From contig CALPYF020000013.1 of assembly GCA_943327755.2 (NCBI GenBank), positions 15,998 to 79,997 of the forward strand: DNA of 64,000 nucleotides, in the 5' to 3' direction. The stretch is from Deinococcus hopiensis KR-140. Lineage in GTDB: Bacteria > Deinococcota > Deinococci > Deinococcales > Deinococcaceae. Below are positions 7,784 to 39,856 of this stretch, piece after piece. Numbering within the stretch: position 1 is the first letter of the stretch; the number at the start of each line of letters is the position of its first letter. The notes under the pieces are model-generated. The model saw only the letters and a list, made by a program, of their open reading frames with translations. It was not told the DNA's origin and searched no databases. The translations under genes and the position numbers were made by a program.

Positions 7784-8268
7784 TCGCGCGGCTCACGGCG
7801 AACAGCAGCGGGAACCGGGGTAGGTGTCGGTGCTGGAGCAGCTGGGAGCAAACTGACGACGTGATGAAGGAGGTCAAGCTGCTGCTTCATGACGGCCTCC
7901 TGCTTCTGGAGAAAGTCTGTCAGGCTAGCCTCAATGCGTGTGATCGGATCGTAAGGATCGGTAGGGGACGAAGGAACTGGCCGAGCAAGCAAAGTCCAGA
8001 GCAGAGGATTGCTGCAGGCCCGAATGGCTTCGACCTGATGCACACTGAGGCCAACACTGCGGAGAAGGTTGGCAAATTCAACGACTTGATCGAAGTCCGC
8101 ACGCTTGATTTGCAGCTGATTGCGTTCGGCCGTGTAGATGGGAATGCCCAGGTGCGCGGCGCAGGTATTCATCACATTCAGGGCACTCCGGCGGCCGAGC
8201 CCAAGGCGGTCGGCCAGTTCATTGACGGTGGCGTAATCAGGTTGACGGTCCAGTTCAAGATTTGTCAT
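7780..8268 (-). CDS. putative HTH DNA-binding protein with a C-terminal coiled coil (MerR/RacA-like layout, 162 aa)
   Basis: ATVNELADRLGLGRRSALN is HTH-like and is followed by an amphipathic segment ITRIEASLTDFLQKQEAVMKQQLDLL. TACGGT at -12..-7 of ATG 8268 suggests a leaderless start. Confidence 0.6.
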   Translation of the reverse strand: MTNLELDRQPDYATVNELADRLGLGRRSALNVMNTCAAHLGIPIYTAERNQLQIKRADFDQVVEFANLLRSVGLSVHQVEAIRACSNPLLWTLLARPVPSSPTDPYDPITRIEASLTDFLQKQEAVMKQQLDLLHHVVSLLPAAPAPTPTPVPAAVRREPRE

Positions 8269-8703
8269 ATGACTACCGTAGATGTCCTGGGGGTGACGAC
8301 TCGCAGTTCGCGCGCACTGCTGGTATCGGTTTGGCAGAAGCCCGAGTTGATCTGCTGCATCCCATTGAGCCACGGGGAGTCAGCCCGGAGGGCAAGCAGG
8401 CCACTCATCGCTACAGTCTCAATTCCTGGGCGCGTCTAGGTCGCACTCAGTCCCGCATGCAGTACCAAGCATGCCTTCCTTGTTCGATGCGTATGCCCGC
8501 ATCAGCCCACCGCTCACAGCTGAGATGAACGGAGTCGTGCGGCACACGACGACCTCTGCATCATTCCGCTTCAGACGTCTCAGAGGGGGGCATTCGTACG
8601 ATGTATCGCGGGAGTCATCGGCGTACCAGGAAGATGTCTACCGCCCAGCTCAACCTGCTACCGCGACCGAATCAGTAGATGACGGGCATGATGTGGCGAT
8701 TTA

Positions 8704-8975
8704 GGTACCAGCTTTTCCAAGTGATCTCAGCATGTCTTGGCGGTCTTGGTTCGAACTCTTCCAGGAATTCTTATACCACTAGGCGGTTCTGGTTCCAGTT
8801 TTTCCAAGTTGATCTGATGTGACCTAATTTCAGCTTCAATTTGGCAACTTCGCGCAGCTTGGTCATGCTGGTTCCAGCTTTTCCAGATGGTTGTCCCCGA
8901 TATGGCGGTCTTGGTTCCAGCTTTTCTAAGTGAGCCAAATAAAACTTGGCGATTCTGGTTCCAGCTTTTCTAACT
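8704..8975. repeat. six ~25-bp direct repeats (GGCGGTYYTGGTTCCAGCTTTTCYAAGT-like) with 43-44 bp period, followed by a lower-GC tract to ~9250
   Basis: GGT(T/A)C(C/G)A(G/A) cores at 8704, 8748, 8791, 8870, 8913 and 8957 (spacings 44, 43, 79, 43, 44). Confidence 0.8.
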
Positions 8976-9411
8976 GGCGGTGCTGCTCGCGAAAAAGCTG
9001 ATGACCTGCCGTCCAAGCGCGTAATAATGCGGTGTTTTCCACATGATTGATGAGGCGTCTTCATGTGTGATGTGGGTTTCGTTTGGTCGAAAAAGGGCGT
9101 TACATAAGCGTCCCATCTGGGATGTTTTGGACCCCCCGGTCGAAGTGCCGTTTTTTCCCTGGTGGTGAGGGGGAAACCGTTACATCGGCATCATTTCAAA
9201 TTGGGGATTTTATTGTGATTGGTTTTGTGGTGTGGTTCGTTTTTTACAGCATCGCATCCGGCTTTTCTGAGCGTGTCGTGAGTCGCCGCCTTTTCCGGCT
9301 CTCAGCCCATGCCTCAGCACCTTTCTGATCATGCCGACCAGGCCCACCCGACGACGCTCGGACGGAGCCGGAGCACAGCGGTGGCCCGCTCACGCGGGCC
9401 CGGCCGGGCGC

Positions 9412-9702
9412 ATGTCGAAAGTTCTCGCCAGCACTCAACTGCCCGACGGCACCACCCTCTCGTTCGACGCGGGCTTCGATCCGCCTCTCAACATCCACTT
9501 CCTGGACGTGTACCGGGAGGGGGAAGAGGACCCGGTGTTCGAGTCCCTCTTCCACCACCCGGGCGGCCGCTTCTCGTACTCCATCGCGGACCTCACGGCG
9601 GACGTGACCCGCCTCGCCGGTCGCCCCCTACCGGAGCTGACGGCGGCCATCATCGCGCTCGGTCCGGTGCCGAATGAGGTCCGCGACCTCGGCCGCCTCT
9701 AA
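9412..9702 (+). CDS. hypothetical protein (96 aa), hairpin-led
   Basis: ATG 10 nt after a hairpin; high GC3 frame; the next hairpin starts right after the stop. Confidence 0.7.
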   Translation: MSKVLASTQLPDGTTLSFDAGFDPPLNIHFLDVYREGEEDPVFESLFHHPGGRFSYSIADLTADVTRLAGRPLPELTAAIIALGPVPNEVRDLGRL

Positions 9703-9739
9703 CAGTCCTGGCCCGCGCACCGCGGGCCACGCGGCTTGC

Positions 9740-9877
9740 ATGAACCGACGCCTGAACCTCCGCGCGATCACCCTCACCGTCATCGTCACCAGCTGGGCAG
9801 GTGGCTTCGCCTTCCTGTCTCTCACCGTGTCCTCGACCATCCAGGCGAGCACCCCCGCATGGTCCGGTACCCCATGA
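9740..9877 (+). CDS. small putative membrane peptide (45 aa), hairpin-led
   Basis: MNRRLNLRAITLTVIVTSWAGGFAFLSLTVSS; ATGA overlap with the next ORF. Confidence 0.55.
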   Translation: MNRRLNLRAITLTVIVTSWAGGFAFLSLTVSSTIQASTPAWSGTP

Positions 9878-10068: not shown

Positions 10069-10145
10069 ACAGGGCCCGGCATTCACCCTGCCCGGACCGC
10101 CTGCCGTCCAGTCCTGGCCCGCGCACCGCGGGCCACGCGGACGTC

Positions 10146-10757
10146 ATGCAAGGCACCCTGACCGGCGTCGTTCTGAATGCCACGACCACCGACACGCAGA
10201 CCACCGTGAAGCTCGCCGGGATCACCGACAACGGGCACCGGGGCGTCACCTGGATTCACACGGTGACCTTCACCGGCCCCCGCAAACTGGCCACCCTGCC
10301 CGCTGAGGGCAGCGTCGCGCGCGTCACCTGCATGGCCACCCAACAGGTCTTCCAGGGCCGCGACGGGCAGAAGGCCAGTGCCGTGAGCTTGCTCGGCGTG
10401 ACCCTCACCCCCCACGCCGGGCCGATCACGCGCAAGGGGTCCACGCCCTTCCTCCTGCAGGCCGTGAACGAGTTCCGCTTCGCCGCGTTCCTCACCCGCG
10501 ACCCTGTGCGTAAACCCATCGGCGTCACTGAAGCGCGCGTGGGCGTGCGCGACCGGAAGGGGCACACGCACTACTTCAACTGCGAAGCCTGGCGCGCCCT
10601 CGCCCCCACCCTGGGCGCCCGACGCGCCGCCGCGGAACTCACCCTCACCTGCATCCTCCGCCGCGATCGGGTGGACACGGCGGCCGGCGCGCGTGCGTTC
10701 GACGTGATGGAAGTCATCGCCCTGAACGCCCAGGGGGTCGCCAATGCCGCAGACTGA
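10146..10757 (+). CDS. ssb: single-stranded DNA-binding protein-like, two OB folds (203 aa)
   Basis: Second half AVNEFRFAAFLTRDP...HYFNCEAWRALA matches the SSB OB-fold pattern; first half is a second beta-rich OB-like unit. No acidic C-terminal tail. Hairpin-led. Confidence 0.65.
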   Translation: MQGTLTGVVLNATTTDTQTTVKLAGITDNGHRGVTWIHTVTFTGPRKLATLPAEGSVARVTCMATQQVFQGRDGQKASAVSLLGVTLTPHAGPITRKGSTPFLLQAVNEFRFAAFLTRDPVRKPIGVTEARVGVRDRKGHTHYFNCEAWRALAPTLGARRAAAELTLTCILRRDRVDTAAGARAFDVMEVIALNAQGVANAAD

Positions 10758-10887: not shown

Positions 10888-10971
10888 CCGGTGGGGGGAG
10901 GCCACGCGCCTCCCTCCCTTTCTTCATGCTCCGCCAGTCGTGGCCCGCGCACCGCGGGCCAGGCCGCTCGC

Positions 10972-11550
10972 ATGAGCCCACCCAACCTCATCCTGCACGC
11001 CACGACCTGCCTCACCCTGCTCGGCCTCACCGCGAAAGCCGCCCTCCGGGCCTTGGAGGACTCGTGGCAGATCCTCGACGCGGAGACAGGCCGCGCCCTC
11101 GGCACCCTCCAGGGCGACCGGGTCACCGTGGACGCGGCCACCCTCCTCCCGGAGGAACTGGACCGCTGCGTCGCCCCTCTGCTCGGCCCCCCACTCGCCA
11201 CGCGTTTCTTCCAGCAGTTCCCCGCCGCGAGCGGTGACTGGTTCCTCTGTGTGCAGGGTGGGCACGAGATCTCCCTGCGCGCTCGGGATGACACGGTTCT
11301 CGCCAGCGGCCACCTGTTCGAACCCACGAGCGGCGTCCTCTTCGCCACCGTGAACACCTGGAATCCCCTCCTGCACACCCTGCTCCCTGCCCCTGTTCCG
11401 GTCGGGCCGGGCAGTAACGAGAAGCAGGCACGCCTGCTCGATTGGCGAACCCTTAACGTCACGCCCAGCATCGCTGACTCGGACACGCTCGCCTTCTACA
11501 TCTCACGGACGGCACTCGACGCACCCGTACCCGTACGGCTGCTGGTATGA
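10972..11550 (+). CDS. hypothetical protein (192 aa), hairpin-led
   Basis: ATG 10 nt after GGCCA; coding-like codon usage. Confidence 0.7.
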   Translation: MSPPNLILHATTCLTLLGLTAKAALRALEDSWQILDAETGRALGTLQGDRVTVDAATLLPEELDRCVAPLLGPPLATRFFQQFPAASGDWFLCVQGGHEISLRARDDTVLASGHLFEPTSGVLFATVNTWNPLLHTLLPAPVPVGPGSNEKQARLLDWRTLNVTPSIADSDTLAFYISRTALDAPVPVRLLV

Positions 11551-11690
11551 CCCGGGGCACGCGGCCACCCGCACCGTGCTCCTCCTCTCGCAGGCGCTCA
11601 CCCTGGAGACAGGTGAGAGTTGGCCGCACGGCCGCGCCCCGTACGTCTGAACCAGCCCTGGCCCCACCCGCGTGGGGCCAGACTGGCGTC

Positions 11691-12155
11691 ATGCTCATCA
11701 CCGTCGGCCGCCTCGGCGATTCCCACGACACTGGACACGCGGAGTACGTCGGACGAGGCCGGGGCAGCGTCCTCGGCAATCCCCTGCCCGTCATCGGACG
11801 GGGCCGCTGGACGGGCGAGGCCGCCGCGTGGACAAGTCACCTGATCCACTCGGCGCACCTCACGGGCACCGAACGCGAGCAGGCACAGCGGGCGCTGCAC
11901 CGCCTCGGCTTCGAGCAGGGAGAGGCAGCCGCGCTGTACCTGCACGTCCTGCGGGAGCAGTGCCGGACGGACACCCCACAACGCCGTGCCGTGCTGCGAC
12001 TCGCCGCCCTCGCCACGCAGGGCCCCGTGCACCTCCAGTGCTGGTGCACCCCGAAGCCGTGTCACGCGGAGCACATCCGCTCGGCCATCCTCGGCTACGC
12101 GCAGACGTTGGTCGAGAGGCGCGCGACCGCCGCACGGGCTACCGTGCTCGGCTGA
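11691..12155 (+). CDS. DUF4326 domain protein (154 aa)
   Basis: YVGRG..S..GNP N-terminal motif and L.CWC.P.PCH C-terminal motif. Hairpin-led. Confidence 0.8.
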   Translation: MLITVGRLGDSHDTGHAEYVGRGRGSVLGNPLPVIGRGRWTGEAAAWTSHLIHSAHLTGTEREQAQRALHRLGFEQGEAAALYLHVLREQCRTDTPQRRAVLRLAALATQGPVHLQCWCTPKPCHAEHIRSAILGYAQTLVERRATAARATVLG

Positions 12156-12883: not shown

Positions 12884-12919
12884 CAGTCCTGGCCTGCGCC
12901 CGCAGGCCACGTCCCTCCC

Positions 12920-13375
12920 ATGCTCAGCCGATTCGATCTCGTCGCCGATGGTCCCGATGGCCCGAACACCTGGCAGTGTGCGGTCTACGCTCCCAGTGTC
13001 ACCACCGCCCTTCAGGCCACCCGCGCTGCTGGGTATGCCGGGACGAGTGCCTGGGACCTCGGGCAATTCGAACGGTCGGAAGGCATGACGCCCTTCGTGC
13101 TCACCCCCTCTCAGGCGTGGGACGTCCGGGGTGAGCGGCACGCATCGTTCGGGCGTGCCCAGCTCCTCTCCCCCCTTCTGCACGTCCACCTCCCTCCCGG
13201 AGACGTCGGCACGTCCAGTGAACTGCTGACGCGCTGGACCTTCCCCTCAGACATCCGGGCTCTGCTCGAAGCGGACGCGGGGAGCCCGGGCGAGGTGCAC
13301 TGGATCTGGATGCACGGCGAGCTGCTGGGACGCCCTGCTGATCAGCCCGTCCGGGTTGTGGCACGACCCTCGTGA
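12920..13375 (+). CDS. hypothetical protein (151 aa), hairpin-led
   Basis: ATG 10 nt after TGGCCTGCG-CC-CGCAGGCCA. Confidence 0.7.
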   Translation: MLSRFDLVADGPDGPNTWQCAVYAPSVTTALQATRAAGYAGTSAWDLGQFERSEGMTPFVLTPSQAWDVRGERHASFGRAQLLSPLLHVHLPPGDVGTSSELLTRWTFPSDIRALLEADAGSPGEVHWIWMHGELLGRPADQPVRVVARPS

Positions 13376-13431
13376 CGCGGCGACCTGCCCATGAAGTGCT
13401 GGCCCCCTGCGTCGGGGGCCACCTCGCCTGC

Positions 13432-13755
13432 ATGACCGGGGACGAAACACTGAGTGCGCAGCTGGACCGCCTGCGCGAGAGTTATGACGACGCGATAGAG
13501 GCGCTGGCCGAGCAGTTCGGCCTGATATGGACCGAGATGCACCCACGGGATGCCACGGCGCAGGGCGTCTGGCCACGCCTCACCATCGACGCCACGCCAG
13601 AGGGCACCATCACCTTCCAGGGCTTCCACTTCGAGTTCCGGACGTGCGTTCCCCTGGACTGCCGAGGGGCGTTTCTCGCGGCGGCCATCGCCCACCTGGA
13701 CGCGTACCCTCGCCACGCGTACGACTGGCAGGCGATCCCCGAAGCGGACGACTGA
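13432..13755 (+). CDS. acidic hypothetical protein (107 aa), hairpin-led
   Basis: ATG 10 nt after the hairpin; the next hairpin starts right after the stop. Confidence 0.7.
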   Translation: MTGDETLSAQLDRLRESYDDAIEALAEQFGLIWTEMHPRDATAQGVWPRLTIDATPEGTITFQGFHFEFRTCVPLDCRGAFLAAAIAHLDAYPRHAYDWQAIPEADD

Positions 13756-13792
13756 AGCCCTGGCCCCCGACCCCGGGGGCCACCTCGCCCGC

Positions 13793-14473
13793 ATGAACGG
13801 AATTCAAGCAGCTGGAGGTCGCCGACTGTGCGGCAGTGGACGCACCGCCGGGGAACTGTACCTGGAGTGCGGCCTGATGAAGGGCGGCTCGCCCATCGAG
13901 GACCGCCTCATGGACCTGCCCCTCGAGGTCGACCCAGTGGAGATGGGGGTGAGTGCCATCGGCATCAGCACCTTCACGGACGAGCATGGCGTCACGCATG
14001 TCCTGGACTGGGTGGGCGCGGACTCCTACCCGGAGATGGCGGACTTCATCGAGGAGGCGCGTCGCAAAGGCGTCAGTCGCAAGGTCAGTCGCACGGCGCC
14101 CCTGGGGGACCTCACCTCCCAGAGTTGCCTGTACCTCCTGCACCCCAGGGCCGTCGTCAAGAACGCGAGCACGCTGGCCACCCCCGACGGATTCGCCTGC
14201 CCATGCGGGAAGGGGCACACGGCGCAGGAGGGCTGCATCGGTCTGGGCTGGCACGTCCAGCCGAACGCCGGGGAGGGCCAGCGCCGACTGGCGGACGGCA
14301 CCTACCCCGTCAAGGCACCCCTCTCCCCTGCCCCGGACTACGCGCTCGGCGTGTTCATGGTCGTGCCCATCACGGCCCTCACCGTCATCCAGCACCCCGA
14401 CCCCACCGTCCAGGCCGACCGGGAGAAGCGGGCGGGACAGAGCGGCCTCCCGGTCTTCGTCGCACAGGAATAA
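13793..14473 (+). CDS. Cys/His-containing hypothetical protein (226 aa), hairpin-led
   Basis: RLCGSGR..LECG, HVLDWVG..YP..ADFIEEARRKGVSR and CPCGKGH...CIG motifs. Confidence 0.75.
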   Translation: MNGIQAAGGRRLCGSGRTAGELYLECGLMKGGSPIEDRLMDLPLEVDPVEMGVSAIGISTFTDEHGVTHVLDWVGADSYPEMADFIEEARRKGVSRKVSRTAPLGDLTSQSCLYLLHPRAVVKNASTLATPDGFACPCGKGHTAQEGCIGLGWHVQPNAGEGQRRLADGTYPVKAPLSPAPDYALGVFMVVPITALTVIQHPDPTVQADREKRAGQSGLPVFVAQE

Positions 14474-14475
14474 CA

Positions 14476-14526: not shown

Positions 14527-14605
14527 ACGCCGGGCCACGCACGGTGCGCGGTCCACCTCTTCCGGCAGTGGTGGCCCCCGGACACCCGGGGGCCATGACA
14601 TTCGT

Positions 14606-15427
14606 ATGCCGACCGATGCCCCCCCACCCCTGCTCAACGTGACCGTGCCCACGCCCTTCAGTACCGCCGTGCCCCTCGACGACCTCACCGAGGACACGCA
14701 CGGCGCCAGCAACCACCTCAAGGGCGCGCTGCGCTGCACCGGGCAACTCCAACCCATCGTGCTGGAATCCCTGCCCAGCGGCGAGTACCGCATCCGGGAT
14801 GGGAATCGCCGCGTCGCGGCCGCCCGGTCGCTCGGCTGGACGCACGTGCAGGCGGACGTGTACGCCGGACTGACCGAAGCGCAGTGGGCCCTGGTGGTCG
14901 CCGGAGTGCACAACCGCAGTGCCAACCCCGTGGAGGAAGCCCGCCTGTACGGCACGCTCACCCAGACGCTCACCGAGGCGGGCATCGCCGCGAACACCGG
15001 CGTTCCCGTGCAAGTCATCCGCGCCCGCCTGTCCCTGCTCAGCCTGCCGGGCGACGTCCTGGACCTGATCGGGACGCGCACCCTGAGCCTGAGTGTCGCC
15101 GAGCGCGCCGCGAAACTCCGGGGCGTGCACGCCGAGCGGGCCGTGCGGGAGATCCGGGAGGCGGAACAGGCGGGCAAGCCGTTCACGGCTGCGCAGCTGA
15201 AGGTGGTCACCGTGGCCCGCGCCAGCAGCCTCGGGGCGCGCCTCATGGCCGCGGCGCCGCCCCCACCCACGCTGCTGCCCCCAGAGACGATCCTCGCCGA
15301 GGAAGTCCGGGCGCTCTGCGAACGGCGGGGCGTGAGCGTGCAGGCCCTGACGCAGGTCCTCACCGGGTCGGTGCCGCCCGTGACCCCCGTGCAGGCGGCC
15401 CACGTCCACCGCGCCGTGGTGCACTGA
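14606..15427 (+). CDS. ParB/RepB/Spo0J-family protein (273 aa), hairpin-led
   Basis: GQLQPIVL...YRIRDGNRRVAAA ParB N-terminal motif, NPVEEARLY, and an HTH AGIAANTGVPVQVIRARLSLL. Confidence 0.85.
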   Translation: MPTDAPPPLLNVTVPTPFSTAVPLDDLTEDTHGASNHLKGALRCTGQLQPIVLESLPSGEYRIRDGNRRVAAARSLGWTHVQADVYAGLTEAQWALVVAGVHNRSANPVEEARLYGTLTQTLTEAGIAANTGVPVQVIRARLSLLSLPGDVLDLIGTRTLSLSVAERAAKLRGVHAERAVREIREAEQAGKPFTAAQLKVVTVARASSLGARLMAAAPPPPTLLPPETILAEEVRALCERRGVSVQALTQVLTGSVPPVTPVQAAHVHRAVVH

Positions 15428-15714: not shown

Positions 15715-15820
15715 GATCGCTGCATGCATACCACGCAGCCCGTGACACCGAAGCAAGACCGACGCCAATAGACGGCAGATGAGTTCACCTCGCGGTCAGT
15801 TGTGCGCTAGCGTGCCCGTC

Positions 15821-20846: not shown

Positions 20847-20965
20847 CCCTTGATGATATCAGTCAAGACTTCTTAAAAAGATTGATTTGTTGTCATCAAG
20901 GCGGGGGGGCAGGCCTGATTTTTATTGTGCTGGACGTGCCTGCACGGGATAAATGAGATGCGTTA

Positions 20966-21254: not shown

Positions 21255-21325
21255 GATGTTCATACCATCACCTGCCTCACCGAGATCCCAGCGCTGGCCC
21301 ACCGCGGGTGGGCCACGAGACGAGC

Positions 21326-22846
21326 ATGACCATCAGCACCAGCAGCGTGTTCTCCTTCAAGACGGCGAAGTTCCCTGGACTCGGGAAGGGCGGCCGGGTG
21401 CAGATCCCACAGCATCTGCACAGCCAACTCGACACGTCCAACCGGATGCGCATCATCCCGTGGGCTGCCGCTGAAGCAGTCGCCCAGGTCCTGCTGGGCC
21501 GCGTGGAGGCTGAACGCACTCCCAAGTCCCTCACCGTCCAGACCATCGACAAGGACGGGCAGCCCGTCCTCATGGCCTCCCACCCCGCCCAGGCGACGTG
21601 GGTGAATGCCGGGCAGACCGTGCGCCCGTACATCCTCCTGATCGCCGAAGCCCAGCTCGCAGCCAAGCACACCGAACTCGCCGAACGCTGGGGCGAACTC
21701 CTGCACACCATCGACCGGCACGCCGTCACCCTCCCCGCCACTGAGGATCAACTGGCCACGCTCAGCTACACCGCTGAATTCAAGGATGATCTCCAGCGCG
21801 TCCTGGACACCCTGTACTACACCGGGAAGCTCTACGCGGACACCTGCTCCTGGATCACCGGGCCCCTCTCCGCCCCCGCCGCGTGGACGCATTCCCCGGT
21901 CCTCCTCGGGCAGTCCCCCCGCCAGCCCGGCGAGCCCGGTGCGGATCTCAGCGAGGAAGGCCGCCTCACCCGGCGGGCCGCGTACGGCATCCGCGCCCTG
22001 CTCGTCGGCCCCACCGGCTGCGGGAAGACCGAACTCGGCAAGCGCGTCGCCCTGTCCACCGGTTCGACGATCGTCTCCCTCAAGGGCCGCCCCGGTCTGG
22101 AGGACCGCGACATGATTGGGTTCATCTCCCCCACCCTGCAGGGCGCCCGCTGGGTGGACGGCCCGCTCGCCCGGGCCATGCGCCTCGCGCAGCAGGGCAC
22201 ACGCACCACCCTCCTGATCGACGAGCTGCTCCGCCTGGACGCGTACCACCGCAACGCCCTGATCGGCCTGCTCGACGACGTCAGCGCCACGGAACTCAAA
22301 GCCACGCTGGGCGTCGACGTGCCCGACGGGCGGTACTACACCCTGGATCTCCCCGGCGCCGGTGAAGTCCTGTACGCCCCGACGCGCCTACTCAGCGTCC
22401 TGTGCACCACGAACGCCGGCAGCTCGTACACGCAGAGCGGCGAGCTCGACCCCGCCCTCCTGCGGCGCTTCCAGCGTGTCATGTTCGTCTCGTACCCTGC
22501 CGAGGCGGTCATCATGCCGGTCTACGCGAAGGCGGCCACACCTGGGACGGCGCGCGTCGCGTACGCCCTGGAAGTGGCCACGCGCAGCATGACGGTCGAC
22601 CAGGGGCAGCTGCTCGCCCGGCCCATGAACACCGGCATCACCCTGAACTTCCTCGCGGAAGTGCAGGACCTCGTCCAGGCGGGCCTCTCCGAGACCAACG
22701 CCTTGCGCGAGGCGCTGCTCGTCACCGTCACGCCGTTCTGCTGCGAGTTGACCGACGAGGGCCTGCCCGACCCGGCGGCCGTGAATGCCCTGAAGGCCCG
22801 CCTGGAAGAGCAACTCCGCAAGGGCCTGCTTCACAAGGCCGCGTGA
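21326..22846 (+). CDS. MoxR-like AAA+ ATPase with an N-terminal extension (506 aa), hairpin-led
   Basis: Walker A GPTGCGKT, WVDGPL, Walker B LIDE, sensor TTN, and LDPALLRRF Arg finger. Confidence 0.85.
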   Translation: MTISTSSVFSFKTAKFPGLGKGGRVQIPQHLHSQLDTSNRMRIIPWAAAEAVAQVLLGRVEAERTPKSLTVQTIDKDGQPVLMASHPAQATWVNAGQTVRPYILLIAEAQLAAKHTELAERWGELLHTIDRHAVTLPATEDQLATLSYTAEFKDDLQRVLDTLYYTGKLYADTCSWITGPLSAPAAWTHSPVLLGQSPRQPGEPGADLSEEGRLTRRAAYGIRALLVGPTGCGKTELGKRVALSTGSTIVSLKGRPGLEDRDMIGFISPTLQGARWVDGPLARAMRLAQQGTRTTLLIDELLRLDAYHRNALIGLLDDVSATELKATLGVDVPDGRYYTLDLPGAGEVLYAPTRLLSVLCTTNAGSSYTQSGELDPALLRRFQRVMFVSYPAEAVIMPVYAKAATPGTARVAYALEVATRSMTVDQGQLLARPMNTGITLNFLAEVQDLVQAGLSETNALREALLVTVTPFCCELTDEGLPDPAAVNALKARLEEQLRKGLLHKAA

Positions 22847-22922
22847 GGCGGTGGCCCCCTCCGGGGGGCTTTCTTCATGTGGGGAGTTCTGGCCCCCAGA
22901 CGCTGGGGGCCACGGTATACGC

Positions 22923-26056: not shown

Positions 26057-26089
26057 GTGTGGCCTCCTGGCGGAGGCCAGGTCAGGGTC

Positions 26090-26191
26090 ATGCACCCCAC
26101 CCGACTCCGCCGCGAGAGCGCCCCGCACCGTGCCCCCCGCAGTCTCCCCCACCGGCCCAGCCTGCACCAGCCACGCCTCCCCCACCGATGA
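26090..26191 (+). CDS. His/Arg/Pro-rich micro-ORF (33 aa), hairpin-led
   Basis: ATG exactly 10 nt after TGGCCTCC-TGGC-GGAGGCCA. Chained by ATGA overlaps to 26188-26268 (26 aa) and then to 26265. Confidence 0.4.
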   Translation: MHPTRLRRESAPHRAPRSLPHRPSLHQPRLPHR

Positions 26192-27733: not shown

Positions 27734-27762
27734 TTGTAAAAAGTGTTCAACATTTGTACCTT
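27734..27762 (+). promoter_or_regulatory. sigmaA-type promoter for a leaderless parA transcript
   Basis: TTGTAA (27734)-N17-TACCTT (27757-27762), with GTG at 27769; the -10 box sits at -12..-7. Confidence 0.7.
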
Positions 27763-29894: not shown

Positions 29895-29945
29895 TGTTGT
29901 AAGGAAGCTATGGCCCGTGACCAGGTCACGGGCCCAGTCGGGCAC

Positions 29946-32900
29946 ATGTCACTGATCAGCCTGTTCGATGCCGTGAAGCCCGCAGCCCAGCCTGCCCGCA
30001 AGGCCAGCCAGGGCAAGGTCAAGAGCAAGGGCGCCGCACACCCCACTCAGGCCGCCCCCGCTGTGATCACAGTGGATCCAGCCCTCGACGCATTCCGGAT
30101 GCGCTCCGCGCCGACGTACGCTCCCGCCTCCAGCGCCGAACCCTACGGCGTAGAGGCTCTGCCCATCGTCAGCACGGACGCTCGCCTGAAGGCCAACCAG
30201 GCCGTCCGCGACATCCTCGCCCGCGGCGTCACCCCCGCCGACCACGCCGCCCTGCGCGCCTGGAGTGGTGAAGGCGGCCTCGGCGAGCACAGCGCCAGCA
30301 CCAGCGCCTTCTACACCCCCGGCGAACTCGTGCAGGTCGCGTACGACCTCAGCCAGGCGCTCGGCAGCACCCGCCGCATCCTCGAATTCAGCTGCGGTGG
30401 CGGCGCCTTCCTCGCGCGCGCACCCAAGTTCAGTGACGTGGTCGGCGTGGAACTCGACGAGACCAGCGCCGCCGTCGCGCAGGCTCTGCACCCTCACGTG
30501 ACCGTCTGGAACGCCTCCTTTGAGACGTACACCACGCAGAGCGAGGACGCCCCGTTCGATCTCGTGATCGGCAACCCGCCCTTCGGCACACGCGGCGCCC
30601 AGGCGAGATTGCACCGCCCCGACCTCCGGCAGGCGCACTGGTACTTCGTCCTCGAAGGCCTGCGCCGCGTCACCCCCGGCGGCCTGATGACCGTCGTCGT
30701 GCCCGAGAGCATGCTCCGCGTGGACAGCGACCGCCCGCACCGCGAGGCGCTGATCGACCTCGCGCACCCCCTGATGCTGTCCGCCGTGCCCGAAGGGGCC
30801 TTCCGGGCGGCCGGGGCGGGCGTCACCACCGTCCTGCTGGTCCTGCGCCGCCACGATGCCAGCGTGACCGAAGCGCTGGCCGCCCTCACCCACGAGGAGC
30901 AGGCCCAGCTGCGCGAGCAGCGCCTGACGCACAGCGGGTACCTCCGCCAGATCGTGAACGGGGAAGGCGTCTTCTACCGCAGCGGGACCGAGTGGAAGCT
31001 CCAGTACGCCGGGGAACCCCTCGGCACGCCCCGCCACCAGGCCAAGATCGGGGACGGCCGCTTCGGCGACCCCGTGTACCCCGGTGGACTGCGCGTGGAC
31101 CTGGCGACCCTCACCAAGCAGGCCAGTGCGCGCGTGAACGACATCCTGACGCTGCCCGGCGCGCTCGCGGCCATCCAGACCCTGTTCGGCTCGAAGCCCG
31201 TGCCCGGCAGGCCCGCCCCCAGGCGCACCCCATCACGGACGGAGAGACCAGTGCGTGCGGCACGTACCGCTTCCAGGGCGGCCACTGGCAGTACGGCTCG
31301 CACCTGAGCAACCCCGCCGTACTCAGCGCCCTGACCGTCGCCCAGGCCATCACGGCGGCCCGCACTGGCCGGCAGCACGCCGCACGCGACACGGCCCTGC
31401 GCCTGCACGACACCCACCTGAGCACGCACGGCGCGTACGACCTGACCCTGCTGCGCCGCGCTGCAAAATCCGCGCCCGCCCTGCACGCGCTCGTCGAAGC
31501 GAACGGGGACGTCCCGGCGCTCCTGACCGAACTCACCGACCGGGAACCCCCCATCACGCCCGGCACGGTGGGCGAGGTCGCCCACCAGCTCGAAGCGTAC
31601 GGCCTGCTCACCATCACGAGCCTCGCCCAGTACGCTCAGGTCACGGATGGGGACGCCGCCGCGCACCTGCTCGCCCAGTACGCCTTCACCGGGCACACGT
31701 GGGAGGCCGCCAGCACGTACTACCGGGGCCGCGCGCACGAGAAGGCCCGCCTCGCCGAGACCCTGGCCGCCGATCACACCGGCACCGAGCGCCAGGCCCT
31801 CCTGCAACAGGCGCAGACCTGCCGCGAACGCGCCCTCTGGGTGGACATCACCGACATGACCCTCGAGGCGCGGGACCCACTGATCCCCGAGCACGTCCTG
31901 GCCGACTGGGTGAACGCCAACCTCGGGACCTGCGTGGCCGTCAAGCGCAACTCGTGGGACGCCGACGGTGCGCCCGTGAACCTAATCCAGGCGGTCCGCG
32001 GTGAGCACGGTGTCACCCTGCGCCTGCGCAACGCCCTGGATGACGAGCTCGCCCTGAAGGAGCGGCAGGCCATCAGTCCTGGGCGCGTGCGGGAACTGGA
32101 GGCGTACCTGAACTTCCGCACGCCGGTTGAACCGGTCGTGAACCAGGACGTGAAGACGCCCGAGCAGATCACCGCCGAACGCCACGCGCATCAGGCCCGC
32201 GCGGTACAGTTCGAACGGCAGCTCGCCGCGCACTTCCGCACGTGGCTGCTCGGCAGTGAGCACGTGGGCACGGTGGAACTCACCCTGAACGAGCACCGGT
32301 ACGGCCTGCTGACCGCCACGCCCGACCTGCGCCCCCTGACGCTCCCCCGGTACCAGGGGCCGCTCGCGCATCCCTTCCAGGCCGGACACGTCCGCGCCGC
32401 CGCGCGTATGGACGGCGTCATCCTGGACTTTTCAGTTGGGCTTGGGAAGACTTTGACCGCGCTGATGCTGGCTGAACTGCTTCTCCAGTCTGGCCGCGCC
32501 CGCCTGCCCGCGGTGGTCGTGCCGCTCTCCCGCCTGGGGGACTGGGTCATGAACGCCGCCACGGCCCTCCCGGGGTTGCGGATCAGCGTGATCGGCGGGG
32601 AACCCGTCCGTGCGCCGGACGGCAGCGTCGCGCTGGACGAGGACGGCGAACCCAGGGTCCTGACGGACACCGGGGACCGCCGCCGCGCGAAGATCGCCGC
32701 GCTCCTGACCAGTCCCCCGGATCTCGTGATCTTCACGTACGAGGCGTTCGAGATGACCCCCATGCTCGAAGAGACCCGCAAGAAGTACGTGCAGAGCGAC
32801 GAGACCCTCATGAGCGCGCTGGCCACCACGACCACGTTCGACGAGCGGCACCGGAAGATGGGCGGGCACCGCGCGCTCGCGGCCGGGGAGAAGTTCACGC

Positions 32901-35164: not shown

Positions 35165-35204
35165 TCAGAAGCTCTGGCCCCCAGCAGGGGGCCACGCGGG
35201 CATC

Positions 35205-35684
35205 ATGCATACCACCACGATCTCCTTCCACCAGCCCCAGCCGCCCCTGAGCACCACCCTGACCTGCACGCCCGACCCACAGCAGGACTTTGTCGCCGAC
35301 CACAACCTGGGGACGCTCACCCCGGACCCCACGCCCACCAGCGTGCCCATCCGGGACGGCCTGCACTTCACGCCCGCCTGGAGTGAAGCGGACGAAGCCC
35401 GCGTGCGGATCACGTTCCTGGGCTTCACGCCTGAACAGGCCCTCCGGGAAGCACGGACGGACGCGATGCGCGCCGCGCGCCGCCGGGCCCTGTGCGGTGT
35501 CACGTGGCACGTCCAGCGGGTCACCTGCCGGGTCACGAACGCGGCCGGGGAGGTCCTGGCGTGCCGCACGATCGGCGGGATCTCCAGTGACCTCAGTGGC
35601 GGGGCACGCGCGCAGTTGGAAGGTGACCTCACCAGCGAAGCGCTCGCCGAGGCGCGCGACCGGGCCATCCTGGGGCTGAACTGA
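35205..35684 (+). CDS. hypothetical protein (159 aa), hairpin-led
   Basis: ATG 10 nt after the hairpin. Confidence 0.7.
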   Translation: MHTTTISFHQPQPPLSTTLTCTPDPQQDFVADHNLGTLTPDPTPTSVPIRDGLHFTPAWSEADEARVRITFLGFTPEQALREARTDAMRAARRRALCGVTWHVQRVTCRVTNAAGEVLACRTIGGISSDLSGGARAQLEGDLTSEALAEARDRAILGLN

Positions 35685-35902
35685 TGCAGCGGCACACCAG
35701 TCTGGACGGGTTGAATGCCGGCGACACCGTGCGCGTGAACGCGACGTGCCGCATCCCGGAGTGTCGCGGGCGACCGGGCATGATTGCGTTCATGTACGCC
35801 GCGCAACCTGCCTTCGGCACGCCGGCGGAATTCATCGTGGATGTCGACTTCATTCTTCGGCCTCTGGGCCGGGAGGAGTTCGATGTCCCTGCGGCGCCAT
35901 GA
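35684..35902 (+). CDS. small beta-rich hypothetical protein (72 aa)
   Basis: TGATG overlap; GDTVRV...G.I pattern is SH3/KOW-like. Confidence 0.55.
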   Translation: MQRHTSLDGLNAGDTVRVNATCRIPECRGRPGMIAFMYAAQPAFGTPAEFIVDVDFILRPLGREEFDVPAAP

Positions 35903-35943
35903 GTGGTGGCCCACCCGGCTCCCGGGTGGGCCAGGTCGCCGTC

Positions 35944-37146
35944 ATGACCTATACCCAGCCCCGTCCGGCCCCCACCGCCCAGCACGCCCCGATCCTCCCC
36001 GACGACAAGGCCCGCGCCGCCGAACTCTGGGAATCCGTCAAGGGCACGGTCCTGGAGGACGACTTCCGCCGTGTCAGCCGCGAGCACCCCGACAAGGACG
36101 CCAGCCGCATGCACTACCTGGCCTTCCTCGCGGACATCGAGGGCCTGTTCGCCGCGCCTGAAGCGGACCCGTGGGAGGCGTCCCAGCCCGCCCCGGTCAC
36201 CCAGCCTGTCCTGAGCGCCCCGCAGCCCGAGCCCACCCCAGAGCCCGAGCCGCAGCAGTCCACGCCCGCTACGGAACCCGCCCCGGACCCCGAGATGCAG
36301 CCCGACGCGACCCCCGCGCCCGAGGAGGGCGCCGCTGAATCCGAACCCGTCAGCGACGCGCAGGACGCCCCCGCGCCCATCGCCACGCTCGCCGCCCCGG
36401 TGCACAGCGGCCTGATCGCCCAGCTCGCCGGGCTGCTTGCCGACGGCGGGGAACTCACCTTCCAGCTGCTGCGGGTCGGGGGAGACGTCACCATCGGCAT
36501 CTTCCCCAAACCGCACCCCGGCGAGGCGGCCCCTGTACCGTTCATGCTGACCGAGACGCCCGACTGGATGGACGCGAACCTCGTGACCGCCATGCAGGGC
36601 TACGCCGGGGCGCGCCGGGATGCCTTCAGCGTCGCCCAGCAGGCCGCGCAGCGTCAGCAGGCCGCGAACAAGAAGGCGGCCGACAAGCCCGCCCCCACCC
36701 CCGCGAAGGCGAAAACGAGCGTCCTGACCCTCAAGGCCGCCGAGGGCACGACCCTGAAAGGCACCCTCGGCGGCAAGGACGTCCCCCTGGTGGTCGGGAA
36801 GAACGACGTGCCGCAGGGCACCCTGGAGATCGTCGCCACGCACCCCGCGTTCGGGGAGGTGAAGAAGACGGTCGCCACGCACGCGAACAAGGAGCACGAC
36901 TTCACCGAGCAGCAGGGCGCGCGCGTCACCGTGAACGTCACCCCGCAGAGTGCCACGCTCGAAGTCACCAAGGGCGACACGGTCATCGCCCTGCATCACG
37001 GCATCGAGATCCTGCTCGCGCCCGGCACGTGGGTCGTGAATGCGCAGGCGGCCGAGCACGCCACCGCGAATCAGACGATCAGCGTGAAGGCTGGGAAGCC
37101 CCAGGTGATCGAGATGACACTCAAGGAAGAGCAACGCCTCTTCTGA
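35944..37146 (+). CDS. PRTRC system protein E-like, fused to C-terminal PEGA-like beta repeats (400 aa), hairpin-led
   Basis: Central LIAQLAGLL...VTIGIFPK...PFMLTETPDWMDANL..AMQGY plus an Ala/Lys-rich tail resembles protein E. Two PEGA-like units follow. Lies next to protein C. Confidence 0.65.
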   Translation: MTYTQPRPAPTAQHAPILPDDKARAAELWESVKGTVLEDDFRRVSREHPDKDASRMHYLAFLADIEGLFAAPEADPWEASQPAPVTQPVLSAPQPEPTPEPEPQQSTPATEPAPDPEMQPDATPAPEEGAAESEPVSDAQDAPAPIATLAAPVHSGLIAQLAGLLADGGELTFQLLRVGGDVTIGIFPKPHPGEAAPVPFMLTETPDWMDANLVTAMQGYAGARRDAFSVAQQAAQRQQAANKKAADKPAPTPAKAKTSVLTLKAAEGTTLKGTLGGKDVPLVVGKNDVPQGTLEIVATHPAFGEVKKTVATHANKEHDFTEQQGARVTVNVTPQSATLEVTKGDTVIALHHGIEILLAPGTWVVNAQAAEHATANQTISVKAGKPQVIEMTLKEEQRLF

Positions 37147-37181
37147 CAGCGCTGGCCCCCTCTGGGGGCCATGTCGTCTGC

Positions 37182-37442
37182 ATGAGCCTGCCCCACTTAC
37201 ACGCCGCCCTGAACCGTACCGATTGGGCCGCCCTCGCCGAACAGAAAGAGGTCCTGGCGAACGAGGTCGCCAGCATCCGCTCCGCGAGGGCGCTCCTGGC
37301 CGCGCACGAGTGCGACTCGGCCGCTGACCTCGCCCTCGATCAGGCGGAGTCGCTCGACGGCATCCTGCACTGGATGGATGCGCTGATGGACGCCGCGCAG
37401 CAGGATGGGTTCCCCGTCGTGTTCCACATGGCCTCCAAGTGA
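37182..37442 (+). CDS. helical hypothetical protein (86 aa), hairpin-led
   Basis: ATG 10 nt after the hairpin. Confidence 0.7.
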   Translation: MSLPHLHAALNRTDWAALAEQKEVLANEVASIRSARALLAAHECDSAADLALDQAESLDGILHWMDALMDAAQQDGFPVVFHMASK

Positions 37443-37478
37443 CAGTGCTGGCCCCCTCCCGGGGGCCACGCGAAGCAC

Positions 37479-37709
37479 ATGACGAATCCCACAGTCAGCG
37501 GTCAACCCCAGGATCTCACCCGTAAGTTCGAGTTCGACGGGCACACCCTCGCAGACCCCAACCCGAAGATGACGCCCGAGCAGGTCAAACAGTTCTACGC
37601 CCCCACGCACCCGGAACTCACCACCGCCGGGATCGGGAGCCCCGTCACGGACCTGAAAGCCGGGACGATCACCATCACGTTCATCAAGAACTATGGCCGG
37701 AAAGGCTGA
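37479..37709 (+). CDS. PRTRC system protein C (ubiquitin-like; 76 aa), hairpin-led
   Basis: RKF.F.G..LADP.P..TPEQVK.FYA..HPELTTA...P....F...GRKG with a C-terminal Gly. Confidence 0.85.
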   Translation: MTNPTVSGQPQDLTRKFEFDGHTLADPNPKMTPEQVKQFYAPTHPELTTAGIGSPVTDLKAGTITITFIKNYGRKG

Positions 37710-37851
37710 TCCGTGCCCGCCCCGCACGCCACTCGTGCTGGACGTGCCCCGGCAGGGGCCGTCCGGGGCGCTCGACGCCCTGCGCCGCAGCCTGAAGACC
37801 ACGCGGGGCGCGCCCGAGCCGAGCGCAGCCCAGGTGCCCCTCCTGCCATAG
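37693..37851 (+). CDS. small PRTRC-associated ORF, paralogue 1 (52 aa, ends VPLLP)
   Basis: High GC3 frame overlapping the start of the F-like ORF; similar to 40732-40920 and 44580-44780. Confidence 0.55.
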   Translation: MAGKADPCPPRTPLVLDVPRQGPSGALDALRRSLKTTRGAPEPSAAQVPLLP

Positions 37852-38867
37852 TCGACCAGCTCATCTCAGTGGTGCCGCGCGCCGTGCCTTCCCTGGCCGG
37901 CGTGCGGCCCCTTGTGCTTCAAGCGGACCTGGATGCCGCCGAGCGGATGTACGAAGAAGGTCTGCGCAACGACCCCATCCCGCTCGTGACGCCCCTGCTG
38001 GGCACCGTTCTCCCGGACCCCGGCCCGGACGGGACGCTCGACCAGCGCCTCCAGCGCGCCCTGACGGCCGCCCTGCGCACCGACGGCTGGACGCTCAGCG
38101 TGCAGAACGAACGTGGCCACCTGCACTTCCGGGGGGAGACGGACGTGTCGTGCACGATTGACCTCCACCGCCTGCACGCCGCCCTGTGGCCCGTGGACCG
38201 ACACCTGCTCCCAGGCCTTCTCTTTGCACTGGAAGTCGGGTCCAGTCGGGTCACGCCCATCGTAGGCCCGCATGGAGCGTCGTTCATCTGTCAGCAGCAC
38301 TTCAGCACGGAAGCCCTGGCGGAGTACACCCTGCCAGAACGCTTCGAACGGCCGGACCTGGTCCTCACGGAGCGGGATGCCGTTCGGGCCGCGCGACGAC
38401 TGGGCATTCCACACGGGCAGCAGGTGCAGGACGCGTTGCCCTGGCCATACTTCCGGGATCTGCTGAGCCTGGAGGACACCCTGGCACGCCTGGAGCAGGT
38501 GCTGCCCCGTGTGCCCGCTCTCGGTCCACTCCTGACGCTCCTGCCAGAGTTGCACGCCGCAGACGGCGCGTTCCTCCACCCCACGGACGACGAGTGGAGT
38601 GATCTCTTCCATGACCCGATCCCGCACACGTTCCTGACCATCACGGGTGGGGACGATGACCTGAGCCTGGACACCATGAACGAGTTCCTTCAGAACCACT
38701 GGGAGTGCGGGAACGTCAGCCCCCAGTGGTGCGTGCAGGTCGGCCGGAATGGCGAGGGACACGACCGGCTCGCGGCGTACCTCCAGCACGCGCCCAGGAT
38801 CGCCGAGCTGGCCGCGAAGTGCGTCGGCGTGCTCGATTTTGCCAATCGGAGTCTGCCAAAGCCATGA
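37713..38867 (+). CDS. PRTRC protein F-like, paralogue 1 (true start uncertain; coding signal begins ~37848)
   Basis: Follows protein C; clearly similar to 40746-41894 (DL..LHAAL...D..LLPG, GIPH...V.D..PWPY). Confidence 0.6.
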   Translation: MPAPHATRAGRAPAGAVRGARRPAPQPEDHAGRARAERSPGAPPAIVDQLISVVPRAVPSLAGVRPLVLQADLDAAERMYEEGLRNDPIPLVTPLLGTVLPDPGPDGTLDQRLQRALTAALRTDGWTLSVQNERGHLHFRGETDVSCTIDLHRLHAALWPVDRHLLPGLLFALEVGSSRVTPIVGPHGASFICQQHFSTEALAEYTLPERFERPDLVLTERDAVRAARRLGIPHGQQVQDALPWPYFRDLLSLEDTLARLEQVLPRVPALGPLLTLLPELHAADGAFLHPTDDEWSDLFHDPIPHTFLTITGGDDDLSLDTMNEFLQNHWECGNVSPQWCVQVGRNGEGHDRLAAYLQHAPRIAELAAKCVGVLDFANRSLPKP

Positions 38868-38977
38868 CCGTCGCCCAACCCCAGCATTTCCAGAATGGAC
38901 CTGACGCTTCTGGATCAGGTCCGTGATACGTCCAGAAGACAGCCTCGTGTGGGATAAGTATCCAATACAGTGACCGC

Positions 38978-39856
38978 ATGCGGCACGACGGTGAAACGTG
39001 GGTCGAGCTCGGTGGTGTGCGCCAGTGGGTCCGCATTGCTGGATCGACCTGTAACACCGTGCCCCTCATCGTCCTTCACGGTGGCCCTGGAGGTCACCAC
39101 TGGGTCTTTGAGCGGACGGCAGGAACACGCTTGGAGACCGAGCGCACGGTGGTGTATCACGAGCAACGCGGCTGCGGTCGGAGCGAAGCGCCCGCTGACT
39201 CAGCCGCATACAGCATTCCCATACTTGTTGAAGACATTGTTCAACTCATGACCTGGTTGAATGTGCCGTGCGTTGATCTGCTCGGGTATTCGTTTGGGGG
39301 CGGTTTGGCCCTGAAGGTGGCACAGGTCAGACCAGATCTGATCAGACGAGTGATTGCGCAGGCTCCTGTCCTTGATGTGTGGCACTCAGAGATCGTCGAG
39401 TACCAATTAGCCGAGTTTAAAAAACTGACCTCGGCGAGCGAATCAGCCATGCCGAATCGAAGAGTATGTGAAAGCTCAGCGGAAGAGCTTGAGCAGATCT
39501 GGGCCATGGCAGGTGAATCACTGGTGAATCTATTCCTATTTCAGGACGCTGCGCATGGTGCTCAAAACCGACAGTGGTGGGCTGAAAGTGGATTGATCAA
39601 TACCGGGGAGATGCAGGCCGCATTGGCCTGTAGCCCGCACCATGAGGCCATCGATAGAACGATCCAGATACCAACGCTTCTCCTGATGGGCTTACATGAT
39701 CGTAACGTGCCACTTTCGTCTGTCAGGCGGCTGATGAACAACGTGGAGGATGTGAGGTTGATTTTGTTTGAGAACAGTGCGCACTTTCCAGACATTGAAG
39801 AAGTCGACGCTTACGTCCGCGTTGTTCTGGATTTTTTATCTGCTGTGACGTCGTGA
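38978..39856 (+). CDS. alpha/beta hydrolase, proline iminopeptidase-like (292 aa); lower-GC cargo
   Basis: LHGGPG, YHEQRGCGRS, nucleophile GYSFGG, D..V and SAHFP. TACAGT at -12..-7 of the ATG. Confidence 0.9.
   Translation: MRHDGETWVELGGVRQWVRIAGSTCNTVPLIVLHGGPGGHHWVFERTAGTRLETERTVVYHEQRGCGRSEAPADSAAYSIPILVEDIVQLMTWLNVPCVDLLGYSFGGGLALKVAQVRPDLIRRVIAQAPVLDVWHSEIVEYQLAEFKKLTSASESAMPNRRVCESSAEELEQIWAMAGESLVNLFLFQDAAHGAQNRQWWAESGLINTGEMQAALACSPHHEAIDRTIQIPTLLLMGLHDRNVPLSSVRRLMNNVEDVRLILFENSAHFPDIEEVDAYVRVVLDFLSAVTS

Follow-up and report, generated by a model that had tools for sequence, protein, structure and literature searches.

Small hairpins in single-stranded DNA (ssDNA), from which RNA synthesis starts at a fixed distance, are known from the promoters of the phage N4 virion RNA polymerase and from the minus-strand origin of filamentous phages. 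Expression of plasmid genes before the duplex is formed is known from a handful of large structures of the Frpo type on enterobacterial plasmids. These ssDNA promoters of plasmid leading regions include Frpo/ssi of F and ColIb-P9, the pESBL classes 1-3 and ssp2 (PMC12672017, PMC13478746), and are long stem-loops with free energies below -75 kcal/mol which rebuild a -35 and a -10 box (PMC12672017). For primer synthesis, 3'-GTC-5' is the start triplet of Escherichia coli DnaG and of PrimPol, with pppAG as product (PMC5934617), and at the ssiA site of RSF1010 the primase RepB' starts with dATP at T32, the hairpin being formed by nucleotides 7-27 and six bases on the 5' side being bound (PMC8567376). 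On duplex DNA, the leaderless promoters of Deinococcus deserti and D. radiodurans show a -10 motif, TANNNT, adjoining the open reading frame (ORF) (PMC4007540, PMC12340547), and in D. radiodurans mutation of this motif abolishes expression (PMC12340547). The window analysed here, a stretch of 64,000 nucleotides (nt), is part of one contig of the 4.63-Mb genome of Deinococcus hopiensis KR-140 (G000 in the comparisons) and belongs to a conjugative Deinococcus megaplasmid. It contains 33 copies of a hairpin module with the form AG-N3-T-[GGCC stem-loop GGCC]-A-N10-ATG, all of them on the plus strand and 31 of them with the ATG behind. No prior description of these modules was found in the searchable literature.

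According to the proposal made below, the modules would resemble the Frpo-type promoters in that co-oriented establishment and anti-defence genes of a conjugative plasmid are headed by a structure which acts only as ssDNA and is silent in the duplex; Frpo-type structures may also prime DNA synthesis, as is proposed for the modules. However, Frpo-type structures are few per plasmid and head operons, whereas the modules stand one per gene and the proposed start coincides with the ATG. Module stems are also short (6-12 pairs, about -10 kcal/mol as DNA) and contain no box. Since the known ssDNA promoters are large and rebuild -35 and -10 boxes, the modules would be a different and much smaller kind. 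The ssiA and ssiB sites of RSF1010, used by RepB', and the G4-type sites of DnaG share with the modules a hairpin of about 21 nt, a T at the fifth base on its 3' side, which in the modules would be the start, and a product which in the modules would likewise start with A (AG). The RSF1010 sites also share conserved bases in the 5' flank, and the same kind of element encodes a primase-polymerase of the AEP type (Prim-Pol), a candidate partner of the modules. In contrast to RSF1010, which has one site per strand in oriV, the modules number in the tens and each is tied to the start of a gene; their cryptic G is present in only 50%, and priming at the modules is a proposal. The N4 and filamentous-phage systems differ from the modules in enzymes, hairpin sequence, geometry and copy number, and show no coupling to a start codon.

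Anatomy, conservation and covariation of the hairpin modules

The strict pattern GGCCA-N10-ATG occurs 27 times in the window, against 2.9 expected, always on the plus strand; the count of 33 modules corresponds to a looser definition. The distance from the last C of the stem to the ATG is 11 nt in 28 modules, 10 nt in two and 12 nt in one. The A of the 3' foot is absent in three of the 33 modules, and 28 of the 31 with an ATG show an A at -11, counted from the start codon. Within the genome, the complete module is found only on this contig.

Conservation was scored in a pool of about 150-220 unique module copies from eight Deinococcus lineages, and a set of 216 hairpins was chosen only by GGCC..GGCC and a downstream ATG, leaving AG, T and A unselected. 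In this set 96% of the hairpins have AG at exactly the same offset, five bases ahead of the foot; T forms the 5' foot in 99.5%, and A the 3' foot in 83%. The sequence-only reading of the window, an earlier account made from the letters of the DNA, had taken this A at -11 to be the retained key base of a -10 box. It is present in 83-85% overall, and a role as the key base is not supported: about 15% of the modules are without it, and the 34 modules concerned show an unchanged spacing pattern. The A of the sense strand is less conserved than the T of the opposite foot and the AG, and its most plausible role is to pair with that invariant T. When only the 5' side of the module is fixed, the ATG follows the last C of the stem at 11 nt in 74%, at 10 nt in 14% and at 12 nt in 3%. 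As had been claimed, -12 is always C, the last base of GGCC, and -7 is rarely T: overall, T is found in 10%, C in 52% and G in 34%, and in the window T is found in two of 26 modules. The best match that had been pointed out, CAGACT before the ATG at 11691, is as described, and CACGGT before the ATG at 22923 also has T at -7. The base at -1 is a pyrimidine in 95% of the modules, and the start codon is ATG in all cases, never GTG. On the two sides of the T:A foot the flanking bases are often identical (C/C in G000, G/G in the genome G060); they change together between lineages, yet stay unpaired.

About ten of 111 Deinococcus species carry many module copies each, while the control with the reversed pattern gives 0-2. 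The carriers include plasmid NC_017791.1 of D. gobiensis I-0 and Deinococcus sp. VB343; outside the genus, the matches listed are singletons only. The elements bearing modules share core genes at only 30-66% protein identity and are therefore old relatives, not recent copies. The D. gobiensis plasmid is complete (424,524 bp) and shows all its 33 modules on one strand, in about seven clusters, with 73 of its 189 ORFs (39%) on the strand opposite to them.

The hairpin is 16-28 nt long, with AG fixed to one of its feet and ATG to the other. That AG follows the foot despite this variation in length argues that a folded single strand is what is read and excludes a duplex signal at fixed distance, since no reader of a straight duplex sees both ends at a constant distance. 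Stems have 6-12 pairs and a mean free energy of -10.3 kcal/mol as DNA, and of -17 kcal/mol as RNA. Stem pairs 6, 7 and 8 are Watson-Crick in 100, 95 and 81%, against 78, 50 and 45% in shuffles, and four pair types are used. The bases immediately beyond the foot avoid pairing, which is seen in 19% against an expectation of 37% (z = -5.1), and the loops are unconstrained, with GNRA in two and UNCG in three of 58 tetraloops. The 3' flank of the stems is GC-rich, T making up 4-39% per position, and shows no T-run, so that the hairpins lack the pattern of an intrinsic terminator. A search of Rfam with the whole window gave no match at gathering thresholds.

Three other readings of the hairpin were set aside. 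A palindrome bound by a dimer on the duplex is ruled out, as the half-site distance varies by 12 nt and the inner stem covaries. A reading of TGGCC or AG as a sigma-54, extracytoplasmic function (ECF) or -35-type element is ruled out, as the distance of these bases from the ATG changes with the length of the hairpin. Integron attC or REP/RAYT-like sites, which the breaking of indels at modules brings to mind, leave the fixed distance to the ATG unexplained; no recombinase was noticed among about 40 scanned ORFs of the window, in which no dedicated recombinase search was made.

Canonical and hairpin-led gene starts

The contrast between two classes of gene start in the window, one with TAnnnT boxes and the other led by hairpins, is real, and every box of the first class lies at the position claimed. 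The helix-turn-helix (HTH) gene with ATG at 8268 shows TACGGT at -12 to -7 (8275..8280, minus strand), the DUF4157 gene with ATG at 15821 shows TAGCGT at -13 to -8 (15808..15813, plus strand), the rep gene of the RPA family with GTG at 20846 shows TATCAT at -12 to -7 (20853..20858, minus strand), and the hydrolase gene with ATG at 38978 shows TACAGT at -12 to -7 (38966..38971, plus strand). The parA promoter (27734..27762, plus strand) contains TTGTAA, a spacer of 17 bp and TACCTT, followed by 6 nt and the GTG at 27769. Because TANNNT at -12 or -13 is found at only 12 of 5081 start-like triplets of the window (0.24%), five boxes at gene heads are far above chance. In the genome, counted on the contigs other than that of the window, TANNNT peaks at 12 and 13 nt before candidate starts, where it is found 314 and 311 times, about ninefold above the background of about 35, in agreement with the published motif. 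The local -10 consensus is T-A-(C/G)-N-C-T-G, and canonical leaderless genes begin with GTG in 22-28%. The HTH, DUF4157, rep, parA and hydrolase genes are ordinary members of the canonical leaderless class of Deinococcus-Thermus.

The hairpin-led genes resemble this class in having the ATG at the +1 position expected from the -12 pair, no Shine-Dalgarno (SD) sequence, a G-rich stretch at -6 to -2 and C at -1. They differ from it in the C at -12, the lack of T at -7, the exclusive use of ATG, and the obligatory hairpin with the invariant AG on its far side. A position weight matrix (PWM) made from the genome's own promoters gives -16.5 bits for the sense strand of the modules at -12 to -6, while canonical promoters reach +9.0 and random sequence gives -20. 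Judged by its bases, the sense strand of the module is not a -10 box. The sequence-only reading had called these boxes crippled, and was right in that the duplex appears to offer no usable sigma-A box, but the sense heptamer does not look like a weakened -10.

SD-like tetramers in the N10 spacer are at background level (6%), which disposes of a hidden SD, while non-module genes of the tract carry AGGAG (26265, 49336, 18879, 47943 and 60806). The context at -6 to -1 is positive as leaderless in 68% of the modules, 73% of leaderless starts and 22% of SD-led genes; within the G-rich stretch, G at -2 is found in 62, 63 and 24%, respectively. C at -1 and A at +4 were dropped as leaderless marks, being common to SD-led genes. 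In one half of the canonical promoters, the -12 pair is as far from +1 as the last stem pair of a module is from its ATG. The simplest reading of these signals is that the module message would begin at the AUG, that is, be leaderless. Of 112 cases scored, 44 have the upstream stop codon abutting AG, at -1 to +1 nt, and the distance from stop to AG ranges up to 57 nt. Translational coupling or re-initiation is ruled out, as the distances from stop to module vary widely and some modules are preceded by no ORF.

The two classes also differ in their evolution. In the close relatives G063 and G069, three segments are absent or replaced: 15720-21289, with the DUF4157 gene, rep and its iterons; 27717-29909, with parAB; and 38852-39950, with the hydrolase gene. 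The alignments with these relatives resume at the module feet at 14572, 21290, 29910 and 39951. Four of the five canonical-box genes (DUF4157, rep, parA and hydrolase) therefore lie in later or exchangeable inserts, the fifth (HTH, 8268) lying outside the stretch compared, and the hairpin genes are the conserved core. Breaks in gene content are seen at module feet at 14531-14572, 15719-21290, 27716-29910, 35681-35687, 38851-39951, 51378-51424 and 56094-58417, and G063 shows extra units of a hairpin plus a small gene, of 483 and 309 nt; thus the tract evolves by cassette-like gain and loss at the hairpins.

A proposed single-strand start signal and its alternatives

The explanation tentatively preferred, with a probability that falls somewhat short of even, is that the foot-defined hairpin module would be recognized when folded in ssDNA and would start the establishment genes; the strand concerned is most likely the template (minus) strand while it is single-stranded. 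The minus strand of the establishment tract could be single-stranded, for example, just after conjugative entry, and its hairpins would then fold. Such a stage agrees with the place of the tracts in four elements, co-oriented with the coupling-protein gene and downstream of it, with the Prim-Pol gene further up, and with the one-strand rule on the D. gobiensis plasmid. On this strand the module reads 5'-CAT-N10-(t)-[GGCC stem-loop GGCC]-A-NNN-CT-3'. The last stem pair would stand where the -12 pair of a normal leaderless promoter stands, and synthesis starting 11 nt beyond it would yield an mRNA with AUG first, leaderless and one per gene. The 3' arm and the unpaired tail would present the polarity of a non-template strand, reading C-A-(G/C)-N-N-C-T-(G) with a near-invariant A-NNN-CT that, one additional base apart, resembles the local -10 (A-NN-CT-G). 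The same tail could serve as a primase-type start (template 3'-GTC-5', product pppAG) five bases from the hairpin. In 96% of the modules the fifth template base past the foot is T, as part of TC; the cryptic 3' base of GTC is most often G (50%), then C (30%), T (17%) and A (3%). In the duplex, a module without promoter would leave its gene quiet or read through, and rep, parA, the toxin and the hydrolase would use their TAnnnT boxes. The earlier proposal of a signal silent on the duplex and active at the junction of double and single strand fits this picture and the AG following the foot; what is invariant and unpaired, however, is A-NNN-CT on the template strand. A bolder version, which must be considered doubtful, is that on the incoming strand the hairpin of 20 nt would be a complete minimal ssDNA initiation unit for each gene, at which host RNA polymerase or Prim-Pol would start a leaderless mRNA at the ATG and the complementary strand at AG, with neither -35 nor -10.

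More than 200 small covarying hairpins, in a phylum distant from the enterobacteria, mark every gene of a conserved establishment tract, while maintenance and cargo genes of the replicon have the ordinary promoter of the host. If they are single-strand start signals, the rule for initiation on ssDNA would be much simpler than in Frpo-type structures, a stem foot and a few flanking bases. With them one could test directly how RNA polymerase or a primase-polymerase recognizes a fork junction, and they would provide a portable switch active only in ssDNA. Even if they act in RNA, they would be a new kind of SD-independent start signal.

Several points weigh against the preferred single-strand explanation. 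It needs the template (minus) strand to be the transferred strand, and transfer of the sense strand would break it. The modules of VB343 chromosome 2 lie in both orientations, which it leaves unexplained, and a coupling protein was not found in the searched part of that chromosome. No PF03432 match for a relaxase was obtained, and the helicase at the right end of the window is only UvrD/Rep-like. On its own contig the window has no Prim-Pol orthologue; the gene would fall just past the end of that contig. Compared with the local -10 (A-NN-CT-G), the tail A-NNN-CT has one extra base, and C stands at -12. Module spacing is on average about half a base shorter than the canonical one, N10 or N9 against 11 or 12 nt from A to +1: the canonical T(-12) stands 12 or 13 nt before the start, and the last stem C of the modules mostly 11. 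The first module of the second tract has a TACCAT hexamer upstream, with which ordinary read-through is possible. The last point concerns an argument for DNA: 146 of 159 stems are perfect (about 1350 stem pairs), and the mismatches comprise seven A.C or C.A and four T.G, with no excess of G.U. As G.U should be tolerated far more readily than A.C in an RNA helix, these numbers weakly favour DNA, but the comparison rests on 11 mismatches, some of them orthologous.

The main rival, unlikely in its turn, places the element in RNA: in a long operon mRNA the hairpin would guide an endonuclease cut after AG, protect the downstream 5' end, or both, and the AUG 10 nt behind the stem would be used without SD or a second cut would give a leaderless end. 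The tight packing and common orientation of the genes, the stop codons abutting AG, the stability of the hairpins as RNA and the TANNNT-like hexamer before the second tract agree with it, and in the sae operon of Staphylococcus aureus RNase Y reportedly cuts after a G that precedes a guiding hairpin by a few nt. Stop-to-AG distances reaching 57 nt agree less well, as do the missing preferences for G.U and for particular tetraloops, the modules which head tracts without an upstream ORF (e.g., at 21290, past the iterons), and the use of SD by nearby internal genes. We know of no translation start without SD 10 nt behind a stable hairpin. If host factors alone were involved, the absence of modules elsewhere in the genome and the one-strand rule (33 copies on a 424-kb plasmid) would remain unexplained. 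In the literal form of the earlier proposal, the sense CA(N4) would be a degenerate sigma-A -10 that keeps only the A at -11 and is activated by extrusion of a cruciform or fork, or by a dedicated activator or sigma. The A at -11 in most window modules, the G-rich stretch at -6 to -2 as in leaderless promoters, and the fact that looping out the hairpin brings foot T and A together as TA at -12/-11 speak for this reading, which is nevertheless improbable. The A is dispensable, 15% of the modules lacking it at unchanged spacing; T at -7, at 10%, is below what is needed; the PWM score is random apart from the A; and a factor bound to the duplex cannot account for AG following the foot. GC-rich arms of 7-12 bp with loops of 3-5 nt extrude poorly, and the dedicated sigma is not borne out, as no sigma-70-family gene was found on the contig. 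Furthermore, in D. radiodurans a mutated -10 kills expression (PMC12340547).

Priming may also be the only function, the modules being ssi sites for complementary-strand synthesis by Prim-Pol or host DnaG, with AG as first dinucleotide of the primer and the link to ATG as a packing of genes against an obligatory flank. This has in its favour the template tail 3'-(G)TC-5', which with its TC and its half-conserved cryptic G corresponds to the pppAG site of DnaG and PrimPol (PMC5934617), the T at the fifth base past the hairpin, as T32 in ssiA of RSF1010 (PMC8567376), the Prim-Pol gene in the element backbone, the density of about one module per kilobase, the two modules without ATG and the several before ORFs of 14-45 amino acids (aa). 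It is given a slim probability: starts only at ATG, the lack of SD and a two-sided peak of spacing (N10 74%, N9 14%, N11 3%) are not explained by packing, which would give a one-sided tail; about 30 genes would be left with no visible expression signal; and sites would be needed all round a plasmid of 370-420 kb, not just in the tracts. Very improbable is a passive role, in which the hairpins are terminators lacking U or insulators between cassettes and hot spots of recombination, their flanks having been inherited from an ancestor copy. The gene-content breaks at the feet at 14572, 21290, 29910 and 39951 and the extra hairpin-gene units of G063 suit such junctions. However, elements at 30-66% protein identity keep AG, T, spacing and ATG while the inner stems covary, which shows selection and not inheritance; there is no T-run past the stems, and a terminator needs no fixed distance to the next ATG.

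Modules and replicon context along the window

The window contains a long array of plus-strand genes, from 9.4 to 59 kb, which encodes a DUF4326 protein, a ParB-like protein, an AAA_5 ATPase with a VWA partner, an N6-methylase/SNF2 giant, the PRTRC set (E, C, B and ThiF), and a TGT-fold protein with a DEAD helicase; scattered among these genes are those of the DUF4157 protein, a RepA-type initiator with iterons, parAB and the hydrolase. Plasmid pDEGR-2 of D. grandis ATCC 43672 shows 98% identity over 20000-29895 of the window. The window has no phage match, so a phage origin is not supported. A gene encoding the coupling protein of a type IV secretion system (T4SS) lies at 1616-5146, and in four elements this gene is 5-17 kb upstream of the module tracts in the same orientation. 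Ahead of the coupling-protein gene by about 20 kb, and on its strand, stands a conserved Prim-Pol (AEP) gene, which was located at 181787-182980 of contig C3 in G027, 16155-17324 of C15 and 19490-20659 of C18 in G060, and 186724-187914 of C4 in G069. Close orthologues of it (at least 61% identity) are present in six module-rich genomes and one module-poor genome.

The first part of the array, before the DUF4157 gene, contains nine modules, all on the plus strand as are those that follow. They precede the ATG at 9412 (9377..9414; C instead of A at the 3' foot, ORF of 96 aa), 9740 (9704..9742; short ORF of 45 aa), 10146 (10110..10148; 203 aa), 10972 (10936..10974; 192 aa), 11691 (11654..11693; the DUF4326 protein, with the sense hexamer CAGACT), 12920 (12885..12922; 151 aa), 13432 (13395..13434; 107 aa), 13793 (13756..13795; 226 aa, conserved in G027, G060 and G092) and 14606 (14567..14608; the ParB-like protein, at whose foot T, 14572, the G063 alignment resumes). 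Past the rep iterons, the first gene is that of the AAA_5 ATPase (ATG 21326, module 21290..21328), and synteny with relatives resumes at its AG, 21290. It is followed by the VWA protein gene (ATG 22923, module 22885..22925, sense hexamer CACGGT), by a conserved ORF of 370 aa with no family hit (ATG 24469, module 24430..24471) and by an ORF of 33 aa (ATG 26090, module 26055..26092), after which comes the SD-led gene at 26265.

Behind parAB, the module at 29906..29948, again with C at the 3' foot, heads the N6-MTase/SNF2 giant (ATG 29946), whose frame is broken in this copy. The next modules head an ORF of 159 aa (ATG 35205, 35170..35207), PRTRC protein E (ATG 35944, 35902..35946, with a stem of 12 pairs), an ORF of 86 aa (ATG 37182, 37148..37184) and PRTRC protein C (ATG 37479, 37444..37481). 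PRTRC protein B (ATG 39984, module 39947..39986) lies past the hydrolase insertion, synteny resuming at 39951. Further modules belong to an ORF of 62 aa (ATG 40732, 40695..40734), two paralogues of PRTRC B (ATG 43023, 42985..43025, and ATG 46266, 46231..46268), PRTRC ThiF (ATG 43795, 43760..43797) and the two genes with N9 spacing (ATG 45853, 45818..45855, and ATG 47536, 47497..47538). The TGT-fold protein gene (ATG 48509, module 48467..48511) shows C at the 3' foot and the spacing of 12 nt, and the SD-led helicase gene with GTG at 49336 follows it. The remaining modules with an ATG precede ORFs of 168 aa (ATG 51467, 51427..51469), 37 aa (ATG 54040, 54004..54042), 116 aa (ATG 55468, 55433..55470), only 14 aa (ATG 55857, 55821..55859) and 174 aa (ATG 58489, 58455..58491), the latter being the last gene of the tract. 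Four modules, with ATG at 9740, 26090, 54040 and 55857, precede ORFs of only 45, 33, 37 and 14 codons. Here the product may be a small protein, the gene may have decayed, or the module may serve some purpose besides gene expression.

Two further units, at 60066..60093 and 60725..60754, show AG-N3-T-hairpin-A with no ATG behind; the second is about 50 nt before the SD-led gene of a UvrD-like helicase (ATG 60806). They flank a minus-strand ORF at 59276-60142, and may mark the end of the tract or neighbour an oriT.

Other repeats and hairpins of the window are of different kinds. At 8686-8973, within a stretch of lower GC (8300-9300) and between the coupling-protein operon and the first module, there are six repeats of about 35 nt with the core GGTTCCAGCTTTTCYAA and a spacing of 43-44 bp, which share no sequence with the rep iterons; this array is possibly an accessory array of oriT or a second origin. 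Just 3' of parB, at 29805-29903, are three tandem repeats of 33 bp, each with a 7-bp hairpin GGGTTGA...TCAACCC, which are likely the partition site. A different hairpin, of 12 bp with TTGACA in the loop and a T-rich tail, lies at 25592-25623, past the end of the module-led gene 24469-25581 and ahead of the gene that follows it (ATG 25640), and looks like an ordinary terminator inside the tract. The N6-methylase/SNF2-helicase giant is split in two frames, 29946-31307 and 30992-35164, by either a frameshift or a sequencing error in this copy; in pDEGR-2, G026 and G092 the gene is a single ORF of about 1716-1740 codons.

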